32,000 bases of DNA, taken from NCBI RefSeq assembly GCF_000015805.1, contig NC_009073.1, positions 420,001-452,000 of the forward strand, in the 5' to 3' direction. How positions within the stretch are numbered: the first letter of the stretch is position 1; each line of letters starts with the position of its first letter. Shown in pieces: positions 7,930 through 31,882 of this stretch. The translations under genes were made by a program, and so were the position numbers. The stretch comes from Pyrobaculum calidifontis JCM 11548 (GTDB taxonomy: Archaea > Thermoproteota > Thermoprotei > Thermoproteales > Thermoproteaceae). The notes under the pieces are model-generated. The model ran no database searches and was not told the origin of the DNA. It was given only the letters and a program-made list of their open reading frames with translations.

Positions 7930-8027
7930 GCACCCCCAAAAAGACCTATTAAATAACTTTTAGTACAATAGACTACATTTATCTATATAGATGAGCAATG
8001 CTTTTATATACCCGGTCATGGGCCTCT

Positions 8028-9353: not shown

Positions 9354-9382
9354 CACATATAAACACCCACCTTTTTTGCCCC

Positions 9383-11248: not shown

Positions 11249-12250
11249 TTATGTGAAAAGTTTCTCCAATATGCCCCTCGCAGCGGCCTCTTTTATCTCG
11301 TGGGCTATCCTCTCTCCCATGTCCATGGGCTCGTCGAAGTAGAGGACAGAGTAGGGGGAGCCCACGCCCATGTAGACGTTTGTCCCAGCCACGATCCTCC
11401 CCGAGAATTCAAAGACGACGATGGTCATGTCGTCTCTTATTATGCTCTCGAGACAGTAGGGTCCCGCCAGCTCGCAGCTGACCTTTTCTCTCACTGCCTT
11501 GGCGAAGTCGACTCCGTACTTGTGCACCACGGGGAGCAGAGACTCCCTTAACACCAGCGGGAGATTCCCCACCACTACGAAGGTGGGCTCTACCCAGCCG
11601 AAGGTTCTCCCATCTACATTGGTCTCGTATCTGATGTCCATGCCGAAGATCTCCACTCTGTTGTACACCGGCGAGGCGAAGTAGTGGTAGTAGGCGGGCA
11701 CGCCGAAGACGTATTCCTGAATTATGTAGTCGCCCTCCACCGCCTTGATCCTTTTGGCCAACTCCTCTCTGTTCTTTGCCACGAAGTACCCCCTGCCGCC
11801 CTTGGCGCCGAAGAGTTTGACTATTACGGGGCCCTCGGCCTCTTCGGCCCTCTTGTAGTACCTCGGCGTGGGTATCCCCGCGGCGGCCAGCAGCTCCATC
11901 TTCTTGTACTGGTCGGCCTCCCAGCGCAACAGCTCTCTACAGCCTAGGGTGGGCACTGGGGCCTCCAGCGCCTGTCTCCACCCCACGTACTCGACGTATG
12001 AGCCGTGGGGTATGAACAAGGCGTTTTTCTCCACGAGCTTCTCAGCGACGTGCCTAAAGTTGGAGAAGTCGGCGGTCCACACTTCGTCGATGAAGGAGAA
12101 CTGGCGGTAGAAGTCGGCGTTTCTCTGTGCCACGGCTATTGTCCTAAAGCCGTACCTCTTGGCTCCCCTGAGGATTTGGAGCGCGGTGTGGGAGGCCACC
12201 GTGGCCACGGCCAACTTATCCAAGTCGTACCTCTTCAGCGCGGCGGACAT
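11249..12250 (-). CDS. purP: 5-formaminoimidazole-4-carboxamide ribonucleotide (FAICAR) synthetase PurP, ATP-grasp
   Basis: 333-aa ORF with IATVASHTALQILRGAK at the N-terminus, KLFGAKGGRGYF, and IQEYV ATP-grasp blocks matching archaeal PurP. Confidence 0.8.
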   Translation of the reverse strand: MSAALKRYDLDKLAVATVASHTALQILRGAKRYGFRTIAVAQRNADFYRQFSFIDEVWTADFSNFRHVAEKLVEKNALFIPHGSYVEYVGWRQALEAPVPTLGCRELLRWEADQYKKMELLAAAGIPTPRYYKRAEEAEGPVIVKLFGAKGGRGYFVAKNREELAKRIKAVEGDYIIQEYVFGVPAYYHYFASPVYNRVEIFGMDIRYETNVDGRTFGWVEPTFVVVGNLPLVLRESLLPVVHKYGVDFAKAVREKVSCELAGPYCLESIIRDDMTIVVFEFSGRIVAGTNVYMGVGSPYSVLYFDEPMDMGERIAHEIKEAAARGILEKLFT

Positions 12251-12304
12251 GGCCTAGGCGTTGCAGAGCTTTTTTAAAGTTGCCGTAAACAATGTCCATG
12301 TTTT

Positions 12305-12337
12305 TCTAAAGTCTCCTCATCTGTCTAAATACTCCTC
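12305..12337. promoter_or_regulatory. Two copies of a 14-bp direct repeat in the purP/dehydrogenase divergent intergenic region
   Basis: TCTAAAGTCTCCTC (12305-12318) and TCTAAATACTCCTC (12324-12337) match at 12 of 14 positions, start-to-start spacing 19 bp, inside the 180-bp AT-rich gap. Confidence 0.3.
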
Positions 12338-12430
12338 TTAACAATCTTAAACCTATTTTATAGACAAGACAAATATTGTGAATTTATATGTAAATATTTT
12401 AAAGTTTTAAATGCCTCAATTCTTTCTTAT

Positions 12431-13435
12431 ATGGCTAAGTATAAGATCGTTGTTTTATCTCCAGCGCCTGAGGCTTTGCTTAAAATGTGGGCAACCCCCA
12501 TTGCCCAGAAGTACGGCATCGCCATCGACGAGGTGGAAGTTGTGACATTTTTTGAGCCAAATTACGAGGAGATTGGGCGACATGTGGCAGATGCAGACGT
12601 CGTGGTGGGGGACTACACCTTTAGAATTAAGATAGATGCCTCGCTCTGTGAGAAGATGTCTAAGGTTAGGCTTATTCAACAGCCAAGCACCGGCTACGAC
12701 CACATCGACGTAGAGGCTTGCGCGAGGCGGGGCATCCCCGTGGCCAACATAGGTGGGGCTAACGCCATTTCTGTGGCTGAGCACACAATAATGCTGGCTC
12801 TCATGTTGTTAAAACGCGCCGTGTATGCCCATAGGAGGCTTTTAGAAGGCCAGTGGACGCAAGGGGAGCTCATGAACGTTATCGGCGAAGTGTTTGGAAA
12901 AACGTGGGGCGTGTTGGGCATGGGGAGGATTGGCCGCGAGGTGGCGGTCAGAGCTATGGCGCTAGGCGCCAAGGTAATATACTACGACGTGGTGAGAAAC
13001 GAAGAGATGGAGAAGAGGGGCGCAGAATATAGGCCTTTTAACAGGCTATTGGCCGAGAGCGACATCCTCAGCATCCATGTGCCTCTGACCCCAGCTACTA
13101 GGAAGATGATCGGCGAGAGGGAGCTAAGGCTTATGAAGCCCACCGCCGTGGTTATAAATGTTTCAAGAGGCGAGATAGTGGACGAGGAGGCTCTCGCCAA
13201 GGCAGTTAGAGAGGGCTGGATTGCGGGGGCTGGAGTAGACGTGTTTTCAGTGGAGCCGCCTCCGCCTGATCACCCGCTTATTCAAGCCGCCAGAGAGGGG
13301 TACAACGTCGTAGTGACGCCGCACATCGCCGGCGCCACAAACGAGGCTAGAATGCGCATAATAAACGTGAGCCTTGAAAACGTGTTTAAAGTGCTCGCCG
13401 GCCTTAAGCCTGACAACGTTGTTAATATGCCATGA
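12431..13435 (+). CDS. D-isomer-specific 2-hydroxyacid dehydrogenase family protein (NAD-binding)
   Basis: 334-aa ORF with the GVLGMGRIGREVA Rossmann motif, and the SIHVPLT and VNVSRGEIVDE..L / TPHIAG catalytic blocks. Confidence 0.85.
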   Translation: MAKYKIVVLSPAPEALLKMWATPIAQKYGIAIDEVEVVTFFEPNYEEIGRHVADADVVVGDYTFRIKIDASLCEKMSKVRLIQQPSTGYDHIDVEACARRGIPVANIGGANAISVAEHTIMLALMLLKRAVYAHRRLLEGQWTQGELMNVIGEVFGKTWGVLGMGRIGREVAVRAMALGAKVIYYDVVRNEEMEKRGAEYRPFNRLLAESDILSIHVPLTPATRKMIGERELRLMKPTAVVINVSRGEIVDEEALAKAVREGWIAGAGVDVFSVEPPPPDHPLIQAAREGYNVVVTPHIAGATNEARMRIINVSLENVFKVLAGLKPDNVVNMP

Positions 13436-15081
13436 ACGTCGCTGAGGCAGTTGTCAAATGTCTTGAGCAATTGGGGGTAAAGCGCGTATACGGCCTAATT
13501 GGCACGTCGATTCTCGACTTTGTAGACGCCTTGAGAGACAGCAAAATTAGGTATATTTCAACGCGGCACGAACAAGTGGCCGTCTCCATGGCCGACGCAG
13601 AGGGCAGAATCACCGGCAGGCCCGGCGTTGCCGCAGTCCACGCGGGGCCTGGCTTTTTGAACTCGCTCATATCTGTGGCCGCCGCGTATAAAGACGTGTC
13701 GCCGCTGCTCCTCATCTCGGGGGCCGTCAAGAGGAGGCTGGCCGGCCTCGACTCTTGGCTCGAAGTCCCTCAGCGGGATATCATTAGGCCATTAGTCAAG
13801 GGCGTCTACAGAGTGGACAAGCCCTTGGAAATTGGGAAAGTGATCTCGGAGGCCTACTCTCTCGCAGCTTCGCCTCCCCAGGGTCCAGTGTTTGTAGAAG
13901 TACCAGAGGACGTGTGGAACATGTCTTCGCAGGCGGAGAAGTGCGAGGTCAAGATTGCACCGCCGCCGACCGTGCCCAAGGACTTCGTAGACAAAGTCGC
14001 CGAGCTCTTGTCTAAGTCTAAGAGGCCGTTGATCCTTGCGGGAGGCGGCGTGAATAACGAAGAGGGGAGGCGCCTCCTCTTGGATGTGTCTGAGAGGTGG
14101 AAGATACCAGTCGCTGTGACAGGCAACGGAAGAGGGGCCTATCCGGAGGACCACCCGCTGTTTTTAGGCAAAGTGGGATTCGGCGGCGGTAACATTGTGG
14201 CCGACAGGGCTTTGGTCGAGGCAGACTTAGTGCTGGCCGTGGGCGCAGGTCTGTCAGACACGACGACGTACGGCTACAACTTCGTGCCCAGGGGGGACAT
14301 CGTCGCCGTAAATTTGGACCCCCTAGCCGAGAAGAAGCCCGTGCCATATACGCTATACCACTACGCAGATGCCGTCGACTTTTTGAAAAAACTAGCCGCA
14401 CTGGACCTTAAATATGAGCCAAGCGTCGAGTGGTTTAGGGAAATAGAGGAGTGGAAGGCCGCGTGGAACGCCCTGCTCTCAGAGGCCCTCTCGAGGAGCT
14501 ACAAGGGGTTTGTAAACCCCTCCAAGTTCTTCCACAGGTTAAACAAGTCCCTCCCCCGGGACTTCGTCATGGTGGGAGGACAGGGCATGCACCTCGTCTA
14601 CACCTTCGCCTTTATCACAGTAAAAGCAGTGAGGGGGTACCTCGCCGCGTTTAACCTAGGCGCCATGGGGTTCGCCTTCCCCGCGGCCCTTGGGGCAAAG
14701 GTAGTGGCCCCTGAGAGAGACGTCTACGCAGTATTAGGCGATGGAGAGTTTATGATGACTGTACAGGACTTGGAGACCGCGGTTAGGGAGAAGATAGGCG
14801 TAAAAATCATAGTAGTAAACGACAACGCATATAGAGTCCTCTACGCAAGACAGAAGGCGCAGAAAATGGGCCGCATCTACGGAACTCTACATACAAACCC
14901 CGACTTTGTAAAACTCGCCGAGGCTTTTGGAGTCGAGGCCATGTCAATAAGCCAAGACGAGGAAATAGAAAAAGCCGTGAACTTTATTACAAGGCCAACG
15001 GACAAGCCCCTCCTATTAGAGCTGAAAATACACCCCGACGACCTCCCCCCAATGAACATAGACGGCGCCCTGAGATTCTAA
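13432..15081 (+). CDS. Thiamine pyrophosphate-dependent enzyme (acetolactate synthase large-subunit-like)
   Basis: 549-aa ORF with an N-terminal TPP-Pyr domain (VYGLIGTSILDFVDAL, HEQVAVSMADA) and a C-terminal GDGEFMM...NDNAY TPP-binding motif. It overlaps the upstream gene by 4 nt. Confidence 0.85.
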   Translation: MNVAEAVVKCLEQLGVKRVYGLIGTSILDFVDALRDSKIRYISTRHEQVAVSMADAEGRITGRPGVAAVHAGPGFLNSLISVAAAYKDVSPLLLISGAVKRRLAGLDSWLEVPQRDIIRPLVKGVYRVDKPLEIGKVISEAYSLAASPPQGPVFVEVPEDVWNMSSQAEKCEVKIAPPPTVPKDFVDKVAELLSKSKRPLILAGGGVNNEEGRRLLLDVSERWKIPVAVTGNGRGAYPEDHPLFLGKVGFGGGNIVADRALVEADLVLAVGAGLSDTTTYGYNFVPRGDIVAVNLDPLAEKKPVPYTLYHYADAVDFLKKLAALDLKYEPSVEWFREIEEWKAAWNALLSEALSRSYKGFVNPSKFFHRLNKSLPRDFVMVGGQGMHLVYTFAFITVKAVRGYLAAFNLGAMGFAFPAALGAKVVAPERDVYAVLGDGEFMMTVQDLETAVREKIGVKIIVVNDNAYRVLYARQKAQKMGRIYGTLHTNPDFVKLAEAFGVEAMSISQDEEIEKAVNFITRPTDKPLLLELKIHPDDLPPMNIDGALRF

Positions 15082-15111: not shown

Positions 15112-15771
15112 GTGGAACTTGTGGAGGCGGTAAAGAAGGTGTTGATGGAGAACCCGTCGATACTAGTGGAGGTCCTAGTGGCAAAGCCGGAGATCTTGTA
15201 CCAAGCCCTGGCAAAGATAGCTCCATGGCAGTTGTTAGCCACGAAAGAGGACATAAGAAGACTTGAGGAAAAGATGGCGACAAAAGAGGACGTAAAAAGG
15301 CTGGAGGAGAGAGTGGCGGCTTTGGAACGTAGATTTGATAGTGAGATGCGCCGCTTGGAGACGACTATTACTGCCCTAGGCGCCAGGTGGGGGGTTCTCA
15401 GCGAGGAGGCCTTTAGGGAGGGGGTGAGGAGGCTCTTGGCCGAGGCCGGCTGGGCGGTGGAGAAGGTGATGTTATTCGACAGAGAGGGGTACGTCTACGG
15501 GGAGCCCTCCGAGGTTGAGTACGACGTAGTCGTGAAAGACGGCAAGACGTTCCTCGTGGAGATAACCTCTGCCCTCAAGCGCAGCGACTTGCCCACGCTG
15601 CGGCGGAAGAGGGAGTACTTCGAAAAAGCCAAGGGGGTGAAAGTAGACGCCGTCTTTGTAGTGACGCCGTTTATACACGACAGGGTGCCAGAGAGAGTTA
15701 AGGCCATGGCAAAGGATATGGGGATAGAGGTGGTATACCCCACCGACACATTGTTTGCATCAGCCCTGTAA
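15112..15771 (+). CDS. Coiled-coil + PD-(D/E)xK-like domain protein (paralogue of 23797-24435)
   Basis: 219-aa ORF. The N-terminal heptad-like repeats (KEDIRRLEEKMATKEDVKRLEERVAALERRF) are followed by EVEYDVVVKDGKTFLVEITS, a nuclease-fold-like block. It has the same two-part architecture as the 23797-24435 ORF. Confidence 0.6.
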   Translation: MELVEAVKKVLMENPSILVEVLVAKPEILYQALAKIAPWQLLATKEDIRRLEEKMATKEDVKRLEERVAALERRFDSEMRRLETTITALGARWGVLSEEAFREGVRRLLAEAGWAVEKVMLFDREGYVYGEPSEVEYDVVVKDGKTFLVEITSALKRSDLPTLRRKREYFEKAKGVKVDAVFVVTPFIHDRVPERVKAMAKDMGIEVVYPTDTLFASAL

Positions 15772-15983: not shown

Positions 15984-16120
15984 GAGGGTGGGTTGCTTTC
16001 AAGCGTCTTGCCGAGTCAAATCAAGTATTAGACGGCGGCTAATCGTTGGCCGCTTTCTAGTACCTGAATTCTCACTGCGCGGCCGAGCTTGCGTAGGTGG
16101 TTTTAAAATGTATTTTTAAC

Positions 16121-17947
16121 ATGGGAGAGGTGAGTGTGAGTGAGGCTTTGGAGGAGCTCCGCGAGAGGCTTGAGCGTTGGGACGAGCTGTGCGCTCAGCT
16201 TAAAGAGCTGTACTACAAGTACCTCGACCTTGCGGCATTCCGCTCAGATAAGTGCTACTTCCCCGGCCGCAAGTGCAAACGTAGCTGGGATCGCCAGTAC
16301 GACATGGGCGACCTAACCCTCATGTGGACGTACATTGCGAACACGGCCCCCCTCTGCGGCAAGCTCATAAGGGCGCTGGCAGAGGTAGAGTACAAAATCC
16401 GCTTAAAGGCTCTGGAAAGTCTAGAGAGGTACGGCGGTGTAGAAAAAAAGAGTAGGCCATCGAATGAAATTGTAAATTGGCAATTAAGGAAGCCTGTATA
16501 CTCGTATTTAGTAATAGATGGAGAAAAACTTTATGTTATATGGGGTGAACCAAAGGGGGTTCCGCACAGAGGTCGTCAAAGGTCTGTCGTGCTTGAAAGA
16601 AAAATTCTCGACGCTCTTCTAAAGATAAAGAGCGGCATTTTCGATGAGTTACACTTTAACGTCTTTAATATAGATCATGAATATGAGCGATTGTGGCTTG
16701 AGGTACCTTTGTCGGAGAGTGCGTCGAAGTTGTTAGGCGGAAGGGACAAGGCCCCGGTAGCGCTGTTCAGAAGCTTGGGCTGGCTGTTGAGCGACGACTC
16801 TAGGGTTAAGCTTGTACATGAGGCGGGCAACCCCGGCCAAGTAGCCTTAAGGTTGTTTGATTGGATTGCCTTGGTGAAATATGCTACCAAAAGGCTGGTA
16901 TTTGATGAAGACAAGCCGCTAGTGTTTAAGCTTGCCGTTCGCTACATTACAAAAACTAAGATAGGCGAAAATCCGCGTGTTTACATAAGGCCAATAGGCT
17001 TCTCCGCCCGTGTGATAAAAGAGACATATTTACGATTCGGTATCCCGTTTGGAAACCCAAAGGCGGTGATTGCTCATGGATATGAAGTTATCGGCGTGTT
17101 GAACAATATGGCGATAAGACGGCATAAAGTTGAAAGCGTTGTAGACGATGTAAATTCGTGGATGGCGCTAAGTGCAACTCTGACGTCGCTAATAATTGGC
17201 GATGGCACAATAAGTCCGTATTTGATACGGATATCCGCAAAAGCAAAGCCAGAGGGGGGTGCAGCTAGAGAGTTAGCAAAAGCGCTAAAAGTTTCGTGGC
17301 ATGAGGGCAAAGTCGCCCTCTGGCCGCGGCTCATGAAGCTCTTGTTACCAGCGCCGCCGACGCCGGCGTTTAAAAAGACTGTGAAGCTGTATAAGACGTT
17401 GCTAGAGTACCCAGTGGCTGTAGTCGTGAATATAGGAGGAAAGAAGTACTTGTTGAACAACGAAAAGGGGAGGTTTAGAATCGGTGGAAAGAAGGCCGTC
17501 GAACTACGCGAGCTACTCAGACGCGTGGGGGTAGAGGCCGGCTATAACGGGCGCCTCTACATAAAGTACAAAGATCTGATGAACTTGGCTAAACGCGGCT
17601 TCGAGGTGAAGTTCTTGAACCAAATGGAGAAGGAGGCCGTCAAAAGAGTGCCGCGGGCTGTGTCGGTGCCCGACCATGAAACTTTAAGGCGCATTTTCGA
17701 AAAAATTGCCGAAGTGGCGAGATTTCGCACAAAAACGTACGGGAAGCATAAATCCATCGTCATATCTCTGATCGACAAATCTAAGTTCGAAGAAGTGTTG
17801 AAGCTACTCGAAGCCTCTGGTTTGCGGTTTTCCGTGTATCAAAAGAAGAAGATGTTTATTATATATGAGCAAACGCTGGTTGAAGCCATATTGAGTGTTG
17901 TGTCACACCTTTTTTCTGCACCTTCTCTTTGTTTTTCATGTGTATAA
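16121..17947 (+). CDS. Large cassette-encoded protein of unknown function with LAGLIDADG-like motifs (possibly a Pyrobaculum multi-copy PaREP2-type family; unverified)
   Basis: Long uninterrupted ORF (opens at 16097; ATG 16121; GTG 16130 lies ~26 nt from TTTTAAAA at 16101-16108). It is visibly more A/T-rich than flanking genes. Motifs: SLGWLLSDDSRV (16772-16807) and SLIIGDGTISPY (17186-17221). Confidence 0.7.
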   Translation: MGEVSVSEALEELRERLERWDELCAQLKELYYKYLDLAAFRSDKCYFPGRKCKRSWDRQYDMGDLTLMWTYIANTAPLCGKLIRALAEVEYKIRLKALESLERYGGVEKKSRPSNEIVNWQLRKPVYSYLVIDGEKLYVIWGEPKGVPHRGRQRSVVLERKILDALLKIKSGIFDELHFNVFNIDHEYERLWLEVPLSESASKLLGGRDKAPVALFRSLGWLLSDDSRVKLVHEAGNPGQVALRLFDWIALVKYATKRLVFDEDKPLVFKLAVRYITKTKIGENPRVYIRPIGFSARVIKETYLRFGIPFGNPKAVIAHGYEVIGVLNNMAIRRHKVESVVDDVNSWMALSATLTSLIIGDGTISPYLIRISAKAKPEGGAARELAKALKVSWHEGKVALWPRLMKLLLPAPPTPAFKKTVKLYKTLLEYPVAVVVNIGGKKYLLNNEKGRFRIGGKKAVELRELLRRVGVEAGYNGRLYIKYKDLMNLAKRGFEVKFLNQMEKEAVKRVPRAVSVPDHETLRRIFEKIAEVARFRTKTYGKHKSIVISLIDKSKFEEVLKLLEASGLRFSVYQKKKMFIIYEQTLVEAILSVVSHLFSAPSLCFSCV

Positions 17948-18505: not shown

Positions 18506-19690
18506 CTAGCCGACAACGTGGCCTATGAAGTATATGACCCTGTCATCTGCCAAGACGAAGAGAAACGGCCTATCCACTACCACCTCCGCACCGCCTACTT
18601 TGGCGCATACAGCGACTTCGACCGCGGTGGCCGCCGCGGCGACTACCCCATTTTCATAGGCCTTGACGTAGGTCCCGTGGAATACGTCGCTTAGATAGAC
18701 GTCGCGGGAGCCGTCCATGGGCGAAAAGTCGGCCTTAGATGGGTCAAAGGCCCTTATGATGCCCATTTCTTTCAACACATCTTTTACAGAACCCTTAAAC
18801 TCTGCCACAAAGATCGGCATTTTTACGTACACGACCTCGGCCGTCAAATTGGAGAGATCTTCCCTGAGTTTTTCATAATTCAACGAGGCCACGTAGGCTT
18901 TGAAATCCAGCGGCACGACAATGTACATGGCAGTCTCCGTGTTCTTCAGCGGTAGCTTCACCACGGTTATGTTGTCCTCTATTTTGCCCACCAACGATGG
19001 GTCGCCGCACGACCTCAAGTCGAGGGCCATGTACTCCACGGGGTGCGCCGCCCCGGCGAAGCTCCCCTCCCCCACCCTGGAAAAGGAGCGCGGCCACCAG
19101 CCTGCCTCAAAGTACAGCGCCGACACCAGCACTGCTACGACGTCCCTCTTTGGACTCGACGGAATTAGGTCTTTTACAAGGCCGCGCGTCTTTTCCTCAA
19201 CCCACTTGTTTATCTCCTCGACCGTGGCCTTAAAGTTGCCGCGAAAATCTACGCGGTGAGCCTCGGCGCAGAGACAAGCAAGCTTTTCCAAGTACTGCTG
19301 TGTAAATGTCGCTCCCGTCTGGAGCCACGCTGAGGTTGCCTCTTCCATGCCTCTGCCAGCTGGCGCCACTTCGCAGGGGTCTTCGCCGAAGCCGAAAACT
19401 CGCTTGATCTCCTCTCTAGTCTCGCCCCCAGCGCCTGCGTACACCATGGCGAAGGCCTTGTAAACGGAAAAAGGAGACACGGCGAAATTTTCGCCTAAGT
19501 GGCTCAGGGCCAGCCTCTTGTAAAACTCCACGGCGAACTCGTTGTAGCCGCTGGCGTTGAAGTTGAGGGCAGGAGAGGGCGAGCAATTTCTAGGCGGAGG
19601 GGCCGCCGGGCTTCCAACGCTTGACGACAACGCCTCTAGCAGTACCAAGGCAATTGCCCCCATGGCAACTAGGAGGTACAGACGTAGCAC
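18506..19690 (-). CDS. Serpin (serine protease inhibitor) with N-terminal signal/anchor sequence
   Basis: 394-aa ORF with a hydrophobic N-terminus (LRLYLLVAMGAIALVLLEAL), an inhibitory-type hinge ENGVVAAAATAVEV, and the C-terminal VVDRPFLFVL...FIGHV serpin signature. Confidence 0.9.
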   Translation of the reverse strand: MLRLYLLVAMGAIALVLLEALSSSVGSPAAPPPRNCSPSPALNFNASGYNEFAVEFYKRLALSHLGENFAVSPFSVYKAFAMVYAGAGGETREEIKRVFGFGEDPCEVAPAGRGMEEATSAWLQTGATFTQQYLEKLACLCAEAHRVDFRGNFKATVEEINKWVEEKTRGLVKDLIPSSPKRDVVAVLVSALYFEAGWWPRSFSRVGEGSFAGAAHPVEYMALDLRSCGDPSLVGKIEDNITVVKLPLKNTETAMYIVVPLDFKAYVASLNYEKLREDLSNLTAEVVYVKMPIFVAEFKGSVKDVLKEMGIIRAFDPSKADFSPMDGSRDVYLSDVFHGTYVKAYENGVVAAAATAVEVAVCAKVGGAEVVVDRPFLFVLADDRVIYFIGHVVG

Positions 19691-20870: not shown

Positions 20871-21926
20871 GTGGTTGTGTACACCGTTGGGTACTCCGCC
20901 TTCACCCCCGAGGGGCTTCTCGCCGAGCTTAAGAGGCGCGGCGTAGAGGTGGTAGTCGACGTTAGGCGCTTCCCCCGGTCTAAGATGCGGGGATTCTCGC
21001 AGGGGGAGCTAGAAGAGCTGTTGAAGGGGGCCGGCGTGGAGTACTTGTGGATGGGCGAGTTGGGGGCGCTGGGCGTGAGGGGGGTAAGGGCCGGCTGCTC
21101 TCAGTCCCCCACCTTTGACGCATATGTCTGGCGTCTCTACCGCTACGGGCCAGCAATCCTTAGCCTCGAGGAGTTGAACAAGCTGGCGGCCGAGAGGACG
21201 GCGGCGCTGTTGTGCAAAGAGGAGGACTGGCGGCACTGCCACAGACAGTTTATCGCCGACTACCTCGCCGCCAGGGGGCACACGGTGGTGCACATTAGGA
21301 AGGGGGGAAGGGAGGAGCCCCACGTCCCCACTCCCTGCTACAGCGTCTTACAGCCGCCGCCCGTCGAGCTCGTTGCCAGGGCGGCGGGCGACTTCGCCCA
21401 CTTGTGTAAAACCCACAGCGTCTACCTCTTCGGAGGGGCGTTGTACAACAGCGGCGGCGACATAGACGTCGTGGCCTACGGCGAGCCCGCCGGCGAGTTG
21501 CCCCAGGGGTACGACGCCCAGACAATACCGGCCCCACGCCCCGACCTCTTCCACCTCTTTGTCACAAGAGGCGTACTCCTCTGCGGAAAGCCCCTCCTAG
21601 TCGACCCCCGCGAGGCCTTGGAAAACGAGCTAAGAGAGGCGGAGGCCCTGGCGCAGTACTTCAGAGAGGGCACCCACCCCGTGCTAGTGTGCAAGGCGGC
21701 CAAGAGGCTGGTGTTCCTAGCCGCAGTACTCAAGTGCGGCCTCTGGGCAGACACGTGGCAAAAGGCCACCCAGTGCCTTGGAGAAGTTCCCGGCGTATTT
21801 AAGGACTGCCTAAGCCCCCCGCCCCTGGAGGAGATGCGGCGGCACAGCCACTTCGTGGAGAAACTAGTGGCCCTAATCAACGAGAGGCGCAAAGCCGGCG
21901 CGCTTTCTCTACCAGGAGGACTATGA
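20871..21926 (+). CDS. DUF488-like domain fused to a minimal nucleotidyltransferase-like domain
   Basis: N-terminus VYTVGYSAFTPEGLLAELKRRGVEVVVDVRRFPRS...CKEEDWRHCHRQFIADYL fits the DUF488 pattern. The C-terminal half has SVYLFGGALYNSGGDIDVVAYG (G-G/S...D-x-D NTase motif) followed by a helical region. Confidence 0.7.
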   Translation: MVVYTVGYSAFTPEGLLAELKRRGVEVVVDVRRFPRSKMRGFSQGELEELLKGAGVEYLWMGELGALGVRGVRAGCSQSPTFDAYVWRLYRYGPAILSLEELNKLAAERTAALLCKEEDWRHCHRQFIADYLAARGHTVVHIRKGGREEPHVPTPCYSVLQPPPVELVARAAGDFAHLCKTHSVYLFGGALYNSGGDIDVVAYGEPAGELPQGYDAQTIPAPRPDLFHLFVTRGVLLCGKPLLVDPREALENELREAEALAQYFREGTHPVLVCKAAKRLVFLAAVLKCGLWADTWQKATQCLGEVPGVFKDCLSPPPLEEMRRHSHFVEKLVALINERRKAGALSLPGGL

Positions 21927-24616: not shown

Positions 24617-24811
24617 GTGGATGAGGACGTTTACTACGTCATAAGCTTCTCTTTGACCATAATTGGGATGCTGGGCGTGGCGTTGTACTGGCTAGGAGGG
24701 AAGTTTAAGAAACTAGAAAAGAGATTTGAGCAGATTGATGACAATATGGGTAGCCCTAGCGAGAAAAAAGGAAAGCCAGCAGTAGGATGCCCACCTACGA
24801 GAAGTGGATAG
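24617..24811 (+). CDS. Small putative membrane protein upstream of the HEPN gene
   Basis: 64-aa ORF with one TM helix (VISFSLTIIGMLGVALYWLGG). The GTG start is ~24 nt downstream of CTTTATATAATC (24588-24599). It overlaps the HEPN start by 25 nt. Confidence 0.35.
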   Translation: MDEDVYYVISFSLTIIGMLGVALYWLGGKFKKLEKRFEQIDDNMGSPSEKKGKPAVGCPPTRSG

Positions 24812-25155
24812 AGAGAGCAAAGAGGTACGCGGCGCTTGCCAGAGAGATGGCTACAAGAGGCTTCTACCCCGAGGCTTGCCTCTTTGCCCAACAAGCCGCC
24901 GAGCTCTACCTCAAGGGACTTTTGATAAAGGCCACGGGGGCCAGGCCGTACACACACTCCATTCTACACCTGCTCAGAAGCTACCTCGCCCTCTCGGGGC
25001 GCGAGCCCGGCGAAGAGGAGACGAGGTGCGCCAAGCTTCTCACAGAGCACTACCTAGGGGCGCGGTACCCCGACGCGAGGATGTTAGAATACGACGACAA
25101 AGACGCCGAGGAGTGCCTAAGATGCATGGACGCGGTGCTCAATGCAGCTGTATAG
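24787..25155 (+). CDS. HEPN domain protein (putative toxin of a HEPN/MNT pair)
   Basis: 122-aa all-helical ORF. EACLFAQQAAELYLKGLL and HYLGARYPD are typical HEPN blocks. It overlaps the downstream nucleotidyltransferase gene by 14 nt. Confidence 0.8.
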   Translation: MPTYEKWIERAKRYAALAREMATRGFYPEACLFAQQAAELYLKGLLIKATGARPYTHSILHLLRSYLALSGREPGEEETRCAKLLTEHYLGARYPDARMLEYDDKDAEECLRCMDAVLNAAV

Positions 25156-25525
25156 GCAAATATTCCTAAAAGCGGCTCAGGAGGCGGAGGAATGGATACG
25201 ACGACTCTGCGAAGCGGGGTACACAGTCATACTCTTCGGCTCAAGGGCAAGAGGCGACGCGAGAATAGACAGCGACTGGGACCTACTAGTAGTGGGAAAA
25301 GACCCCCCACCCGAGCCGCCCCACGACCTAGTACAAGTGGTATTCCTAAAGCCCGAAGACGTAGAACCCCAGATAGAAAAATTCAACACCCTGGTAATAG
25401 ACGCCCTCTACGAGGGAAAACTGATATGCGGCCCCAAAGACCTCTACCACAAGTGGAGAGAAACCACACTGAGAAAGACGGCCAACTACGCCAAGACACC
25501 ACAAGGCTGGCTACCACGCTCCTAG
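25142..25525 (+). CDS. Minimal nucleotidyltransferase (MNT, putative antitoxin)
   Basis: VILFGSRARGDARIDSDWDLLVV is the canonical GSxxRG...DxD minimal nucleotidyltransferase motif. Confidence 0.85.
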   Translation: MQLYRQIFLKAAQEAEEWIRRLCEAGYTVILFGSRARGDARIDSDWDLLVVGKDPPPEPPHDLVQVVFLKPEDVEPQIEKFNTLVIDALYEGKLICGPKDLYHKWRETTLRKTANYAKTPQGWLPRS

Positions 25526-26214
25526 CGCAACCCACCCACCTCCTCCACCAGCGCCTTATAGGCCCTTTCGTGCTCCTCAGTCCACGCGACGCCGCTTTTC
25601 AACCTCTCTATGTAACGTATCACTGCCTTAACCAGGCTCTTCACAGCCGCGGCGGCCTCCTCCCTCGTCCTGTACTTGCTGAGGGCCATGTCCGGGTCTG
25701 GGCCGTGGTACTGATAGTCGTGGAGGTTCAAAGCACCATATGTGATATATGTAACGTCCTCATACCCTAGTTGCTCAAGCATCTGCGAAAGCGGTATCAT
25801 CTTCGTAGTGGGGACTCGGGGCACTGCCCTCTCCTCAAGCCAACGCCGCTCTTCCTCCGTCTTGGCCAAGGTCTTCAGCCTGTCCAGCTCCAGCCTGAGA
25901 AGAGCCGCCAGCACAGCCCTCCACGCTTGAAAAGCCTTCCCAGCCGCGTTACGCGTTAAACCACGCCTGAGAAATTCGAGGGCCAGCCTAGCCTCCACCA
26001 AAGCCTCAAGAAGGCGGGCAGAGGCGTAGTCCGCAGAGGAGGGCTTTGGGAGCGGGCGCTCAATAGCTTCTTCCACGGCTAGATAGAGCGGCTGGTATAT
26101 ATGCGTTACAGCTTCTTCCAATAAGGCATCAACGGCCACAGCTGAGATGAGGCTAGAAGCTGCCACGCCGCATCCAACAGCGCCGCTAGGCCCTAATAAG
26201 CACGATATGGCCAT
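25522..26214 (-). CDS. PaREP1-like family protein
   Basis: ARLLEALVEARLALEFLRRGLTRNAAGKAFQAWRAVLAALL...LHDYQYHGPD matches my recollection of the archaeal PaREP1/PaREP8 helical family. The start is set at the internal ATG 26214; the ORF opens at 26328. Confidence 0.6.
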   Translation of the reverse strand: MAISCLLGPSGAVGCGVAASSLISAVAVDALLEEAVTHIYQPLYLAVEEAIERPLPKPSSADYASARLLEALVEARLALEFLRRGLTRNAAGKAFQAWRAVLAALLRLELDRLKTLAKTEEERRWLEERAVPRVPTTKMIPLSQMLEQLGYEDVTYITYGALNLHDYQYHGPDPDMALSKYRTREEAAAAVKSLVKAVIRYIERLKSGVAWTEEHERAYKALVEEVGGLR

Positions 26215-26460
26215 CGAAACGCCGCGTGTCAAAAGCGCGTTCTCCGAAAATAAAACACTCAGCAATGTAACGCAACCGTGGCTAAGCCGACTAAATTTAT
26301 AAGAGTGGACAAGCACATGGTGCAACACGGTTCGGCTCTACCTCAGGAATTGGCGATGCATAGAGGAAGTGGAGATCTCTCTAGAACCTGTTACTCATCG
26401 GGAGGAACTCTAGGAGCATTATTCCGAGTAGTGGCTCGCCCCCTCCCCCGCTCAGAAGCT

Positions 26461-26688
26461 CTACTGTACACCTCCCCTGCTCTTGACGAGCTTTTCCACA
26501 TACTCGAGCAACCACTCGACCTGCGGAAGATCTAACTCGACGTCCTCAGCCGCAAGCTTCGCCTCGTGGAAGCCCCACACGTGCAAGCTGTAAGCGGCGT
26601 CCCACGCGCTTTTCACCCGAGGCTCACTCACACCCCTAAAAACATATCGCCAAACGCGCAGAGACATCTGTTGAAAACCTCCACACAT
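26461..26688 (-). pseudogene. PaREP1-like C-terminal fragment (probably a decayed second copy extending to ~26870)
   Basis: SAWDAAYSLHVWGFHEAKL... parallels the GALNLHDYQYHG block of the neighbouring gene. Upstream minus-strand frames (26636-26866) carry possible N-terminal remnants in another frame. Confidence 0.35.
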
Positions 26689-26964
26689 CCCTCGCCACTA
26701 GAGCCCTACCTCGCCCACATGGCCAGAGGACCTTCGCCTCATTCCACGGCCGTTGTCTCAGGTATTGCGCAGGTCCTGCAAAGCTGACGTAGCAACTGGC
26801 AGTTGTAAGTAAAAATCCCCATATATGCACTGCCATAGGCTCAATAGACCTCGTAGAACTCCCCAAAAAGAGCGCTCAGACTCCACTGGCCCGCGGACAG
26901 GGAAGGCGGCGCGGACACACCCCACGCCGAAATTTTCAACGCGCATAGTTGCGACATACGCGTA

Positions 26965-27345
26965 TTGAAATCTAAGATAAGGCACACGGACAAGGAAGCC
27001 GAGTGCCAAGCGCTGTTCGACACAGGCTCAGGCATCACGGCAATACAACGAGCGTTCTTCGAAGAACACTTCGACACCAACCGGCTAAAGCTCGAGAAAC
27101 CCCAGAGAGTGCATTGGATAAACGGCAACTCCATTGAGATAGACAAATACGCGCCAATCACAATAGTCAAGACGAGATAGACCTCCCAGAAACCGCATTC
27201 ACCGTGGACAGCTACGTAAGAGCCGAATTAGAGGACAGGAGGGTCGCCACCCGAGCTAATCATAAGCTCTGGGGACAATGGACAAATACGGCATAGCACT
27301 AGGTCCAGAAGAGAGAGTCAAAGTAAGCAAGGCAATACTGTTAAC
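26965..27345 (+). pseudogene. Retropepsin-like aspartic protease, disrupted by a stop and frameshifts
   Basis: ALFDTGSGITAI has the D-T-G-S active-site loop in the right context. The reading frame stops at 27180. Homology-like sequence continues in two other frames (LPETAFTVDSYV..., then TMDKYGIALGPEERVKV, resembling the usual C-terminal xxLGxDxL...D block). Confidence 0.55.
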
Positions 27346-27420
27346 AAAACCCACAGTTACCTACAACACGGAGAGAACGAAAACCAGAGAACCCTTAAAA
27401 TCTGCACACCGTTTAGACAT

Positions 27421-28444
27421 GTGAAGAGGATCAGGGTCTCTTTCGCCGGCCTTGAGGTCGAGTTTGTGGATAGGGATAGCTCTTGCGCAGATTAAAGAGT
27501 TCGGCGAAAGGGGGACTTTCCCAGTCTACGTCGTCTACGGCCCCGAGGGGTGTGGCAAGACTGCCTTCCTCAAGCAGGCTAAAGCCGTCCTTGAAGAGGA
27601 GTTTGGCTATCACGTCATATACGCGAGCCCTCTGGCAGATGATGCGAAAGAGATCTTGTACACCCCCTCGATCCGCGAAATTGTCGAAGAAGTCTTAAAG
27701 GCCCCTCCAGATCCCCGCCTAAAACTCGTCGACGTAGTTGTAGCTATCGTCAAAAGAGTTGTGAGAAAGGTAAGGAGGCCCAAAATCGCGGTCCTCATGG
27801 ACGACGTATTCCAAGCGGTGGGCCTAGACGAAGCGGAGAGATACACAAAGACGTTGCTAAACCTAATAGAACACCCACCAGAGAAGTATGAAAAATCGTC
27901 GTCCTCGTCGCCTCCAGCGAGGGCGTTACATGGGAGCGCGTGGGACGGCACAGCTGGGTAGACATCTTCGTCATGTGGAATATGCCGCGGAGCGGCTTTG
28001 AACAACTGTACGACGCACTACCAGGCCCAAAGCCTCCCTTCGACGAGGTTTGGAGGGCGACTGGGGGGAAACCCAGGAATACTCTCAATGCTCTTCAAGA
28101 GACAGTGGGATACTGGACAAGTGGTAAAGTGGCTTATTGCCTCTAAGGGCCTTGGCGATGTGTTGCCTGTGCTTAGCCGTGTTAAGCTTGAAGTTCTTAG
28201 AGAGGCTGTGGAGGACCCCGACGTGATACTTGAAAGAATAAGGGAGAGGGAGGTGCAAGAGCTCAGAGATCTGCTCGTCGAAAAGAACTTGATCGTCAGA
28301 GTGTGGGATAGAGACCAGTACCCCTGGGTCGACACCCCACCACCCGAGCGCGACCCAGAGCTAGGCATAGGGAAACATTATGCGTGGCAAACGCCCCTAC
28401 ACAGAGAGGCGGTGAGAAGGGCACTAGAGACGCTCCGCGACTAG
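27421..28444 (+). pseudogene. Archaeal-type P-loop ATPase, frameshifted paralogue of 29036-30052
   Basis: It is collinear with the intact copy across three frames: VKRIRVSFAGLEVEFVDRD | IALAQIKEFGERGTFPVYVVYGPEGCGKTAFLKQAKAVLEEEFGYHV...EKYEK | IVVLVASSEGVTWERVGRHSW...FDEVWRATGG | NPGILS...DPELGIGKHYAWQTPLHREAVRRALE. Frame changes occur near 27475, at the A5 run 27891-27895 and at the G6 run 28063-28068. Confidence 0.8.
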
Positions 28445-29035: not shown

Positions 29036-30052
29036 GTGAAGAGAATCAAGCTGATCTTTGCCGGCAGGGACGTGGAGTTTACAGACAGAGACGTGGCCCT
29101 GGAGCAAATAGCCAAGCTAGCCGAGAGAGGCACCTACACAGTACACGTCGTGTACGGCCCCGAGGGCTGTGGCAAGACGGCCCTCCTCAAACAGGCCAAA
29201 GCCGTCCTAGAGGAGGAGTTCGGCTACCACGTCTTATACGCCAATCCTCTAGCCAAGAGGACGGAGGAGATTCTCCAATACTCTCCCTCGGCGAGGGAGC
29301 TTGTGGAGAAGGCATTCAGCGTATTCTCTGACCCATTAGCCAAGGCCGTAGACCTGGTAATAAACGTGGCAGGGTGGATAATCCAAAAATTCCACAAGGC
29401 AAAGGTTGCGGTCCTCATGGACGACATATTCCAAGCCATTGGAGTTGAGAATGCAGAGGCCTACGTCAAAGCTCTACTCAACTTGATAGAGTGGCCACCC
29501 GCCGAATACGACAAAATAGTCGTGCTAGTGGCATCGAGCGAAGGAATAACCAGGGAGCGTGTAGGAAGACATAGGTGGGCAACTATCAAGGTGATGTGGA
29601 ACATGTCGAAGGATGGCTTTCGCCAGCTATACGACGTGCTACCAGACCCAAAGCCCCCATTCGACGATGTGTGGAGGTGGACTGGGGGCAATCCCGACGC
29701 CCTAGAGGGGCTTTTTGAGGCTGGGTGGGACGTGGAGAGAGTTGTGGAAGACTTGGCAGTTGACAAGGGGCTGAGCGCGGCCTTTGCCGAGAGGTGGAGG
29801 GCGCATTTGGCCAAGGCGCTGGAGGATCCAGACTACCTCTGGGAAGAACCTGAGGCAGAGGGACTGGCAAAAGAGCTAGTGGAGAAAAACCTCGTAGTAT
29901 TGTTAAAGGGAAGGAGGCCAGACGCCTGGGTCGACCAGCCGCCCCCCGAGCGAGACCCAGAGCTAGGCATCGGAAAACACTACGCTTGGCAGACGCCCCT
30001 ACACAGAGAGGCTGTGAGGCGGGCGCTGGAGCAGGCCCAAAAATCTGCATGA
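29036..30052 (+). CDS. Archaeal-type P-loop ATPase (Arch_ATPase/AAA-like)
   Basis: 338-aa ORF with FTDRDVALEQIAKLAERGTYTVHVVYGPEGCGKTALLKQ (Walker A) and VAVLMDDIFQ (Walker B-like hhhhDD). The GTG start is ~24 nt downstream of CTCTTAAACTTC. Confidence 0.85.
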   Translation: MKRIKLIFAGRDVEFTDRDVALEQIAKLAERGTYTVHVVYGPEGCGKTALLKQAKAVLEEEFGYHVLYANPLAKRTEEILQYSPSARELVEKAFSVFSDPLAKAVDLVINVAGWIIQKFHKAKVAVLMDDIFQAIGVENAEAYVKALLNLIEWPPAEYDKIVVLVASSEGITRERVGRHRWATIKVMWNMSKDGFRQLYDVLPDPKPPFDDVWRWTGGNPDALEGLFEAGWDVERVVEDLAVDKGLSAAFAERWRAHLAKALEDPDYLWEEPEAEGLAKELVEKNLVVLLKGRRPDAWVDQPPPERDPELGIGKHYAWQTPLHREAVRRALEQAQKSA

Positions 30053-30122
30053 AGCTGGGCCACGGCTTTTCGCAAGAAAAATAAACATCGTAAAGCTATT
30101 ATAGCAGACGGACATCGGTGAT

Positions 30123-31169
30123 GTGGGCATGGGCTACGTAAAGGGCCTGGAGGTAGAGGGCTACCGCGGGCTCCGCAAGGCGAGCCTAACCGACTTCGCA
30201 GGGATAAACGTGTTCGTGGGCAAAAACGGCAGCGGGAAGTCCTCCCTCCTCGAAGCCCTCTACATAGCCCTCAAGCCGTTTGACGGGCTGAAGCACGTAG
30301 TCAAGAGACGCGGCTGGTTTGGCCTAGCGTCGGCAGAGGCGCTATTCCACGGCAGGGATAGTGAGATCAAGATAAGAATAACGTTGGAGGATGGGTCTTG
30401 GGAGGAGGTGATAATAAGACGCAGTGCGCCTACCGTAGGTCATATAGAGGCACTTAAGGCCAAGGGCCTAGACGCCAGCAAACTATATGCGCTCAGCATA
30501 AGCGCAAAGGGCAAAGTCGCCGGAGATGCAACATTTTATGTAGACCCCAGCGGTAAATGTCTTACGCTTTTTGAAAAGGGGGAAGGGATGGTTTACGGCG
30601 CGACGTTCATTGACTGGAACAGCGTCTACTCCTACGGCACTCCAGAGGAAGCCTATTCCACCATGGTGAAAGAGGGCGGTGAAGAGGCTAAGGAAGCCGT
30701 CATCAAGACTTTACAAGCTGAATACGAGGAGCTTCGCGACATCGCAGTCCTTCGTGCATACGACGAATGGGTGCTCCATCTAACCTTTAAGGACGGGGCC
30801 GTTCCATACTACGTAGCAGGCGACGGCATTAGATACGCCCTGATGTACCTCATGGCCGTGTCCACGCCCAAAGAAGCCGTGTTGCTAATGGAGGAGCCGG
30901 AGCTACATGCCCATCCGAGACTGATGAAGATAGTGGCCAACTCCATCCTCCACACCCACCGCGAAAGGAGAAACCAGGTATTCCTCTCAACCCACAGCCT
31001 AGAGCTAATAGAGATGTTAATCGAACAAGCCGAGAAGCTCGGACTAAAAGACCAAGACCTGAAAATCTACAGACTCGCGCTAAAAAACGGCGTCCTCTAC
31101 AGCAAGGTGTACACCTTAAGCGAAGCCCTAGACGCCGTCAAAAAACTCGAATGGGACCTCAGGAGGTAA
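30123..31169 (+). CDS. ABC/SMC-type ATPase of the OLD/AAA_15/AAA_21-like kind, stand-alone
   Basis: Walker A GKNGSGKSS at residues ~33-41 after a beta-hairpin N-terminus (LEVEGYRGLRKASLTDFAGINVFVG). Signature-like VAGDGIRYAL, Walker B-like VLLMEEPELHAHP, and an H-loop FLSTHS. A TATA-like CTATTATAG lies ~25 nt upstream. Confidence 0.8.
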   Translation: MGMGYVKGLEVEGYRGLRKASLTDFAGINVFVGKNGSGKSSLLEALYIALKPFDGLKHVVKRRGWFGLASAEALFHGRDSEIKIRITLEDGSWEEVIIRRSAPTVGHIEALKAKGLDASKLYALSISAKGKVAGDATFYVDPSGKCLTLFEKGEGMVYGATFIDWNSVYSYGTPEEAYSTMVKEGGEEAKEAVIKTLQAEYEELRDIAVLRAYDEWVLHLTFKDGAVPYYVAGDGIRYALMYLMAVSTPKEAVLLMEEPELHAHPRLMKIVANSILHTHRERRNQVFLSTHSLELIEMLIEQAEKLGLKDQDLKIYRLALKNGVLYSKVYTLSEALDAVKKLEWDLRR

Positions 31170-31882
31170 GACGCAAGACGTTGATACTTCTCACGGAGGG
31201 TCTAGTCGAGGAAATAGTCTACTCCAGCATGCTGGAAAAACTATACGGCGGCAGACAAGTAGAGTGCGAAGATGCGCCAACACCGTTGGAAGCGCTCATA
31301 GATCCCCTCATACGACGCGCCAAATGCTATACTCTAGAACATGGAGACCTTATAGTCATAGTCAACAGCAGAGGGTATGAAAATCTCAGAAACACAATCA
31401 GACAACTACTCACACAGCCAGAGCTCCCCGAAGCCCTCGGCCAACTCGACCTACGCATAGCAGTCGCGGCCGACAGAGACAAGAACCCCACCGAGAGCAT
31501 CAGAGGAGTACTATCGTCAATGGGCCTCCAGGCAACAGGAGGCGACACCCTCACCGTTGAGCTCGGCAACGGGGCCAAGTTGGCCATACACGTAATAGAA
31601 CAGGGAGGCGAGGGAGACACTGCCACAGGGGAAATAGAAGACGAGCTAAGAAAACTCGTTGAGACGCTAAAGCCAGAGCTACAACACGCCGCCAAGAAGG
31701 TAGAGGAGATCTACGGGCCACTAACCGACAAGCAGAAGCTACTAATCTACCTGGCACTACTAGAGCGCAAACCCAAGATAAGAGAGCTGTACGAGCTCTT
31801 CAGAGAGGCGGTGGCGGCGGCCAGCAGAGACGCCATAGAACACCTGGGCCTAGCCAAAGGCCTAGGAAAAGCGCTCGGATAG
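31151..31882 (+). CDS. Toprim-like (DUF4276/DUF4435-like) partner protein of the ATPase
   Basis: Its start overlaps the ATPase gene end by 19 nt. LILLTEGLVEE (hydrophobic strand + EGxxE) at residues 11-21 and IAVAADRDKN (strand + DxD) at ~103-112 match the acidic-residue layout of Toprim folds. The C-terminal part is helical. Confidence 0.45.
   Translation: MGPQEVRRKTLILLTEGLVEEIVYSSMLEKLYGGRQVECEDAPTPLEALIDPLIRRAKCYTLEHGDLIVIVNSRGYENLRNTIRQLLTQPELPEALGQLDLRIAVAADRDKNPTESIRGVLSSMGLQATGGDTLTVELGNGAKLAIHVIEQGGEGDTATGEIEDELRKLVETLKPELQHAAKKVEEIYGPLTDKQKLLIYLALLERKPKIRELYELFREAVAAASRDAIEHLGLAKGLGKALG

Follow-up and report, generated by a model that had tools for sequence, protein, structure and literature searches.

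We analysed a 32,000-nucleotide (nt) stretch of DNA from the crenarchaeon Pyrobaculum calidifontis JCM 11548, which we refer to in its entirety as the window, and we focused on two open reading frames (ORFs) near its end that are best explained as a two-gene operon encoding a minimal ABC-type ATPase and a dedicated Toprim-like partner. The first ORF, gene 1, occupies positions 30123-31169 of the forward strand and encodes an ABC/SMC-class ATPase of 348 amino acids (aa) from a GTG start, or of 346 aa from an in-frame ATG at 30129 that gene callers have used in other assemblies. The second ORF, gene 2, occupies positions 31151-31882 of the same strand and encodes a Toprim-like protein of 243 aa with a C-terminal helical domain when read from its ATG at 31151; an alternative start is the TTG at 31181. 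The ATG of gene 2 sits 19 nt before the stop codon of gene 1, which results in a 19-nt overlap. A first-pass annotation, prepared from the DNA letters alone, had described both ORFs with these positions, lengths and overlap in a crenarchaeal host, all of which we confirmed. That annotation had also described a TATA-like box about 25 nt upstream of gene 1, and we found CTATTATAG at 30097-30105 on the forward strand, where it precedes the GTG by 18-26 nt and the ATG by 24-32 nt, that is, the candidate starts of gene 1 by 18-32 nt. As read from the sequence, CTATTATAG is a putative promoter that would give rise to a leaderless or near-leaderless two-gene transcript. A comparison of loci showed that the box is identical in the related contig L009 and is not clearly conserved in contigs L007 or L020.

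The start of gene 2 differs among related loci. The start codon of gene 2 in L009 and L007 is an ATG or GTG located 3 nt past the stop codon of gene 1. Comparing window positions 31140-31185 with positions 3785-3830 of L009 and 4440-4480 of L007 for the ancestral start of gene 2, we found that the ancestral start codon reads CGC in the window and that 1 nt has been deleted there, as a consequence of which the frame is shifted and the gene 2 ORF now opens at an upstream ATG. This ATG falls within the conserved end of gene 1 that encodes LEWDLR. Judged from these alignments, the 19-nt overlap is a derived, lineage-specific feature of the window, and what is conserved across loci is the tight adjacency of the two genes, not their overlap. 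The spacing between gene 1 and gene 2 ranges from the 19-nt overlap to a 12-nt gap across loci, with the exception of L018, which lies at a contig edge and has a called gap of 68 nt.

The linkage of the two genes was obligate in the loci that we examined. A gene 1 orthologue is located directly upstream of the gene 2 homologue, on the same strand, in all 10 distinct contexts that contain enough upstream DNA, a count that leaves out L010 and L015, whose contigs end at gene 2. The co-occurrence of the pair in other genomes, which had been anticipated from the window alone, thereby held wherever the upstream DNA allowed it to be checked. Pairing was observed in loci L001-L006, which belong to the same species as the window, in L009 (gene 2 83% identical to that of the window, ATPase 76%), in L007 (71% and 72%, respectively), and in L020 (gene 2 42% identical). 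In L011, L008, and L018, the ATPase gene is cut by the contig end and was recognised by phmmer at 1e-79, 3e-38, and 1e-87, respectively. The pairing extends to L016/L017 (gene 2 about 30% identical; L016 ATPase 39%), L014 (about 23%; ATPase 43%), and L012/L013 (about 22%; L012 ATPase 34%), such that it holds down to about 22% identity of gene 2, and across loci the divergence of the ATPase keeps pace with that of its partner.

We also found a pair of this layout in a metagenome-assembled genome of the Planctomycetota. In this contig (L019, positions 8001-9790), a gene 1 homologue with 29% identity is followed by a gene that overlaps it by 4 nt and encodes a protein of 261 aa. The 261-aa protein shows a CEG...CGG...DPD layout like that of gene 2, its alignment with the gene 2 family profile covers the N-terminal 116 columns (hhalign E = 6e-5, probability 65%), and it had no match in Pfam or PADLOC. 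The matching layout of this pair suggests that the module reaches beyond archaea, as an unannotated family. The family itself is small. When 1.84 billion representative proteins were searched with a profile, 44 clusters of gene 2 relatives were recovered at E ≤ 0.001, the full-length members of which are about 230-255 aa, and a metagenome scan for gene 2 relatives yielded 3 loci only. Named sources of gene 2 are limited to P. calidifontis, P. neutrophilum, and a truncated copy in P. islandicum. The latter (Pisl_1482, P0030) and its counterpart in a related assembly (P0031) do not contain the N-terminal region with E16 and have divergent C-terminal ends, and for these reasons they look like decayed copies.

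The product of gene 1 matched the Pfam families AAA_15 (1.3e-22, 81.3 bits against a cut-off of 32.1) and AAA_21 (1.6e-22, 81.4 bits against a cut-off of 27), both of which had been expected for a stand-alone SMC/ABC-class ATPase and both of which exceeded their curated cut-offs. Further Pfam matches to SMC_N, AAA_23, and DUF2813 were located at the P-loop end, and NCBIfam returned sub-threshold matches only (MAD3, RecF, retron Eco8 effector, and Rad50). The best of 149 PADLOC matches was PDC-M38A (PDLC04608, 7.7e-33), with lower matches to AbiLi (8e-25), AriA (4e-23), and mad3 (1.8e-15), as well as to HEC-01A, NsnB, GajA, and Old. The protein contains a Walker A motif, GKNGSGKSS, at residues 33-41, a signature-like AGDGIRY at residues 232-238 (GDG at 233-235), a Walker B region, VLLMEEPELHAHP, at residues 253-265 with putative catalytic acids at E257-E260, and an H-loop, LSTHS, at residues 288-292 (T290-H291). 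Across 55 gene 1 homologues, the invariant or near-invariant residues are G38 and K39; G233, D234, and G235; E257, E258, P259, E260, and H264; Q285; and T290 and H291. An AlphaFold2 model built on database homologues was predicted with a local distance difference test score (pLDDT) of 92.9 and a template-modelling score (pTM) of 0.91. In Foldseek searches, its best matches in the PDB were Rad50 heads (TM about 0.6), GajA, PtuA, the retron Eco8 effector, and SMC heads. Residues 81-164, approximately, lie between the ATPase lobes of the model and are beta-rich, and a single helix of 25 residues comes after them; the model contains no coiled coil, and the protein ends right after the ATPase head. 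Based on the Pfam matches, the conserved motifs, and a predicted structure free of coiled coil, gene 1 encodes a minimal, stand-alone ABC ATPase that has no effector domain and is of the OLD/AriA/AbiLi kind.

Gene 2 encodes LILLTEGLVEE at residues 11-21 and IAVAADRD at residues 103-110. Across 31 members of the family, some of which share as little as 22% identity, the invariant or near-invariant residues are E16-G17 (within an hhhVEG motif), G75, D108-x-D110, Q151-G152, T159, E163-D164, and K194. All motifs that the first-pass annotation had quoted for the two proteins thus fall on conserved positions, and because these are invariant or near-invariant columns of the family alignments, the motifs are not due to chance. 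The AlphaFold2 model of gene 2 (pLDDT 83.2, pTM 0.81) shows an alpha/beta domain followed by a helical domain, which makes up one third of the protein, is conserved, and contains the motif KQKLLIYLALL. In this model, the conserved acidic residues are found where strands 8-15, 99-108, and 143-151 terminate on their C-terminal side and where helix 162-173 begins. A Toprim domain is expected to carry a glutamate after its first strand and a DxD motif after its third; in gene 2, E16 lies just past strand 8-15 and D108-x-D110 ends strand 99-108, and both are conserved. On the basis of the predicted secondary structure, the residues are placed as would be expected of a Toprim metal site, for which E16, D108, D110, and E163/D164 are the putative metal-binding residues.

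The family of gene 2 points in the same direction. When individual members were searched against Pfam, OLD-like_TOPRIM was matched by 19 of 31 (best 2.3e-5) and DUF3226 by 15 of 31 at E ≤ 0.05 (best 1.6e-7); the query itself had no DUF3226 match at E ≤ 1. Its sole PADLOC match was PDC-M38B (PDLC04619, 1.2e-4; residues 12-123 against profile positions 4-110 of 240), and across the family PADLOC returned PDC-M38B models for up to 11 of 31 members, mad4 for 5, and AriB for 1 (0.0066). Foldseek comparison of the model with the PDB produced one real match, PH0156 of Pyrococcus horikoshii (2p62_A; TM 0.70, E = 1.7e-7), the remaining matches being glyoxalase-type chains with TM < 0.2. The family profile likewise matched 2p62_A at 1e-6, as the sole PDB relative detectable by sequence. 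The structure of PH0156 was solved in 2007, and the protein is still annotated as hypothetical. When searched against PADLOC, its N-terminal 108 residues matched mad4 (3.9e-16), PDC-M38B (4e-7), and AbiLii (0.003), with weaker matches to RT-Toprim and Old. PH0156 has also been reported as the top HHpred match of a lactococcal PARIS AriB/DUF4435 protein, which the same analysis relates to the OLD Toprim domain (PMC11381338). A chain of evidence therefore leads from gene 2 through DUF3226/PH0156 to AriB and AbiLii and from there to Toprim, which suggests that gene 2 is Toprim-like. The assignment made in the first-pass annotation stands with respect to motifs and family, whereas the fold was not confirmed against canonical Toprim structures, to which the direct link is weak as judged by both sequence and structure comparison. 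The DUF4435 and DUF4276 matches that had been forecast for gene 2 were absent, and the families closest to it are DUF3226/mad4 and the candidate PDC-M38. A search of the viral structure library BFVD returned nothing significant, the best plausible match being an RloB-like protein (TM 0.38, E = 0.16).

We compared window positions 30123-31882 with positions 2746-4518 of L009 to evaluate how the pair has diverged. Gene 1 is 82% identical in nucleotide sequence with a ratio of nonsynonymous to synonymous substitution rates (dN/dS) of 0.34, and gene 2 is 85% identical with a dN/dS of 0.23. The neighbouring ATPase_2 gene is 95% identical with a dN/dS of 0.07. Both genes of the pair are under purifying selection and evolve faster than their neighbour, since their dN/dS values are below 1 yet above that of the ATPase_2 gene. 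The flanks of the pair are 93-99% identical, which makes the pair a local divergence hot spot. The lowest identities, 71-74%, were observed in the insert of the ATPase and in residues 59-108 of gene 2. Positive selection was sought in the ATPase insert, where dN/dS was below 1 everywhere, and neither gene gave a sign of it. Synonymous divergence (dS) varies along both genes as a mosaic that ranges from 0.03 to 0.98, a pattern in the sequences that suggests recombination between alleles or allele exchange.

Several known systems resemble the pair. PDC-M38 is one of 145 phage-defence candidates in PADLOC that stem from a guilt-by-embedding screen, in which genes embedded in known defence systems were identified and homologues of their cassettes were then sought in RefSeq v209, and it is defined by two cassettes that were counted 84 and 66 times (Payne et al. 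bioRxiv 10.1101/2024.01.29.577857). Like the window pair, PDC-M38 is a two-gene cassette in which an ABC ATPase is followed by a protein of approximately 240 aa, and PDC-M38A and PDC-M38B are the best PADLOC matches of the two genes. However, while gene 1 matches the PDC-M38A model, the match of gene 2 to PDC-M38B is weak and covers the N-terminal 110 of 240 profile positions, and the Pyrobaculum family forms a separate, mostly archaeal branch. DUF3226 (PF11536), through PH0156, provides the closest solved structure to gene 2, with a TM of 0.70 over the full length, an N-terminal hhhVEG motif, and a similar length, but the gene 2 query falls below the Pfam threshold, which makes it a distant relative and not a member. 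Our text searches on DUF3226 and PDC-M38 turned up no paper on the gene 2 family or on these nearest relatives.

In PARIS, an AriA hexamer holds AriB until ATP-dependent sensing of a phage protein leads to its release, and the freed AriB forms dimers that cleave tRNA-Lys, using a two-metal Toprim site of which E26 is part (PMC11464382; PMC12409363). PARIS resembles the window pair in that an ABC ATPase and a Toprim-like effector are split between two genes of an adjacent or overlapping operon, AriA hidden Markov models (HMMs) match gene 1, the sequence context of the catalytic E26 of AriB is that of E16 in gene 2, and PH0156 is the top published HHpred match for AriB. In contrast to AriB, gene 2 has no match to DUF4435 (PF14491) at E ≤ 1, and the AriB HMM detects a single member among its 31 relatives. 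AriA is about 55 kDa and carries coiled-coil inserts that form the hexameric scaffold, whereas gene 1 encodes 348 aa with no coiled coil, and its match to the AriA HMM scores below that to PDC-M38A and reflects a general likeness among the ATPase family. AriB is 35 kDa and the gene 2 product is 27 kDa, and the host of the window is archaeal. The pair thus lies outside PARIS, given the absence of a DUF4435 match, the lack of a coiled coil in the ATPase model, and the smaller size of both proteins.

The OLD family, which includes P2 Old, GajA of Gabija, and the retron Eco8 effector, and AbiL share with the pair an ATPase of the AAA_15/AAA_21 class and the combination of an ATPase with a Toprim-type module, and the OLD-like_TOPRIM matches among the gene 2 relatives add to this likeness. 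In OLD proteins, however, the ATPase and Toprim are fused on one polypeptide, whereas the window pair consists of two separate ORFs and hence is not a fused OLD nuclease; for a split arrangement of ATPase and Toprim, the designation OLD class 4 has been proposed (PMC10568477). With respect to AbiL, the AbiLi HMM matches gene 1 but AbiLii has no match to gene 2. MADS shows a further likeness, in that mad3 matches gene 1 and mad4 matches 5 of the 31 gene 2 relatives. When the window ORFs and related loci were scanned with Pfam, no methyltransferase family was seen beside the pair, the other MADS genes not having been searched for specifically, and as judged from these sequences the pair is not part of a MADS locus. 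In the literature on mad3 and mad4 of MADS, we found nothing usable on mad4. By analogy, the window pair is akin in its logic to PARIS, AbiL, and a split OLD nuclease, of which it is probably a cousin and in none of which it is a member. The split OLD/AbiL/PARIS-like architecture proposed in the first-pass annotation consequently stands as a pairing of an ATPase with a Toprim-like protein but not as membership in any of these systems, and the layout is already common and catalogued.

Based on analogy with PARIS, OLD/Gabija, and HEC-01/04, we favour, at a probability of roughly 60%, the reading that the two-gene operon, a divergent, mostly archaeal branch of the systems that combine an ABC ATPase with a Toprim-like partner, serves as a module of defence against viruses or mobile elements of another kind. 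Following those systems, we infer complex formation, nuclease activity, substrate, trigger, and a role in defence. The ATPase would dimerise via ATP, using K39 of Walker A, the GDG signature, and E258, and would hold or regulate its partner. A signal from the invader would then alter the state of the ATPase, upon which the partner would cut DNA or tRNA/RNA at a two-metal site composed of E16, D108, D110, and E163/D164, so that the invader or the infected cell is stopped. A more specific version, to which we give somewhat less than an even chance, holds that the pair belongs to a previously unrecognised, mostly archaeal defence family that is a stripped-down analogue of PARIS, in which a coiled-coil-free ABC ATPase sensor and a DUF3226-related Toprim nuclease would act at temperatures of at least 90 °C against crenarchaeal viruses, possibly with an assembly and a target (e.g., tRNA or viral DNA) other than those of the bacterial systems.

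Two sets of observations weigh against a defence module of this kind. The first concerns the locus and its distribution: there is no G+C anomaly, flanking tRNA gene, or tandem repeat at the pair locus, no integrase family turned up among the window ORFs scanned against Pfam, tblastn detected no gene 2 relative in plasmids and phages, IMG/VR contained none and returned only generic, distant AAA_15 ATPases, and in the distant locus L016 the pair lies amid housekeeping genes, between those for EamA and a tRNA-splicing endonuclease. The second concerns the partner and its models. Gene 2 alone has no significant match in Pfam or NCBIfam, where the best Pfam trace is OLD-like_TOPRIM at 0.21 over residues 12-33 only. 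No Toprim chain of OLD, GajA, AriB, or RNase M5 was among the top 50 Foldseek matches of its model in the PDB, and hhalign of its family against P2 Old aligned 20 columns only, at a probability of 8% (Old residues 394-413, VLLVEGKTE, the first strand-helix motif). The PDC-M38B match is restricted to the N-terminal portion of that profile, and PDC-M38 is itself a candidate system only. Furthermore, gene 1 does not contain the coiled-coil inserts of the AriA scaffold, and therefore a PARIS-like assembly should not be assumed.

The first set of observations also bears on a rival explanation, which is that the pair is a selfish, toxin-antitoxin-like addiction module with no dedicated antiviral role, in which a Toprim-like toxin is checked by the ATPase and the genes are kept since their loss is harmful. 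We consider this unlikely, although of the alternatives it survives best. The tight coupling of the two genes, the HEPN/MNT (minimal nucleotidyltransferase) and HepT/MNT toxin-antitoxin (TA) modules around them, the patchy distribution with a decayed copy, and the mosaic recombination are all consistent with addiction, as is the toxicity of AriB once it is released from PARIS (PMC11464382). However, none of the plasmids, phages, or viral contigs searched yielded a relative, the pair keeps its position in two related Pyrobaculum-like genomes, and the pairs of ABC ATPase and nuclease that have been tested so far act in defence. The border between addiction and abortive-infection defence is blurred.

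The second set of observations leaves room for another rival, to which we assign slightly lower odds still, namely that gene 2 is a non-catalytic adaptor or regulator with a degenerate Toprim-like fold and that the ATPase does the work, as it might by binding to nucleic acid or to a partner from another locus, or by remodelling either. Four acidic positions and Q151-G152 are invariant or nearly so down to 22% identity, which would be hard to explain if there were no metal or active site. Such an adaptor would nevertheless fit with the restriction of canonical Toprim likeness to the first strand-helix unit, with PH0156, to which no function is assigned, as the only structural match from Foldseek, and with the conserved helical domain, including KQKLLIYLALL, that makes up one third of the protein. 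ABC ATPases include RecF, and a Toprim domain is present in RecR, but a DNA repair or recombination module, that is, a small analogue of RecF-RecR or Rad50-Mre11 in which an SMC-like head is paired in genome maintenance with a Toprim-type protein that binds or cleaves DNA, is improbable: among solved structures, Rad50 and SMC heads are the nearest to gene 1 and its match to the RecF N-terminal model of NCBIfam is at 1.8e-10, yet the RecF and Rad50 matches are far under curated cut-offs and confined to the P-loop region, the gene 1 model contains no coiled coil, the pair diverges faster than the neighbouring gene, and the family is tiny relative to the 1.84 billion proteins searched, with only three named sources of gene 2.

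If the pair is active as a defence module, it would extend the ABC-ATPase and Toprim theme of OLD, Gabija, PARIS, AbiL, and HEC-01 into the Thermoproteales, and it would provide a first function for the DUF3226/PH0156 fold. The small size of the two proteins (about 39 kDa and 27 kDa) and their thermostability would suit structural work on how ATPases control nucleases. The gain would be incremental, as the architecture is well known and the close candidate PDC-M38 is already in PADLOC.

The surroundings of the pair were surveyed in the window and in related loci. The first 15 kb of the window are devoted to housekeeping functions, including purine nucleoside phosphorylase, ArgRS, L7Ae, a branched-chain amino-acid ABC transporter, PurP, and a thiamine pyrophosphate (TPP) enzyme, and from 15 kb on the gene content is mixed and includes a radical SAM enzyme. 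At the border of the housekeeping and variable parts lies a protein with DUF3782 and membership in the PDDEXK_10 nuclease superfamily (15112-15771), which matches the CRISPR type III-associated model C3a181 of PADLOC at 1.3e-13. It is followed by an ORF of 616 aa (16097-17947) that has no Pfam or PADLOC match and coincides with the stretch of lowest G+C (0.48 against about 0.56), and on account of this low G+C the ORF may be foreign DNA. A full-length serpin is encoded on the reverse strand at 18506-19690 (Pfam Serpin, 5.6e-69), and a protein of 351 aa with an N-terminal DUF488 is encoded at 20871-21926; the latter matches PDC-M45B (1.6e-19) and PDC-M19A (3.9e-18) in PADLOC, and its C-terminal 200 residues are unannotated.

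Closer to the pair, the window contains an overlapping HEPN-MNT toxin-antitoxin pair at 24787-25525 (HEPN, 1.6e-30), adjoined on the opposite strand by a PaREP1 gene at 25522-26328. An intact ATPase_2 (PF01637) gene lies at 29036-30052, upstream of the pair, and its sequence is repeated in three overlapping ORF pieces at 27452-28444, which constitute a frameshifted, decayed paralogue. The TA modules and ATPases that the first-pass annotation had noted in this neighbourhood are present, as the HEPN-MNT pair and the ATPase_2 pseudogene, together with PaREP1. The block at 26310-28174 is absent from L009, which suggests a recent insertion or deletion. Downstream of the pair is a GT2 glycosyltransferase gene. 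We considered the intact ATPase_2 gene as a third component of the module and rejected it, as the distant loci L012, L014, L016, and L020 do not contain it; the ATPase_2 copy in L007, moreover, is a divergent paralogue with TA genes between it and the pair.

In related loci, the pair lies beside HepT/MNT modules and PaREP1 in L007, beside HepT/HEPN-MNT genes and another AAA_15 ATPase in L008, and beside Cas6 in L014. TA, Cas, and other ATPase genes are thus often found in these neighbourhoods, and this defence-like context, together with its turnover, supports the reading of the pair as a defence module. In the archaeal contig L020, a second, different pair (12051-13752) encoding an AAA_15 ATPase of 391 aa and a protein of 168 aa is located directly downstream of the homologous one. 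The 168-aa protein was evaluated as a relative of gene 2 and rejected (hhalign probability 0.1%), and the two pairs of L020 form a small cluster of ATPase-based modules.

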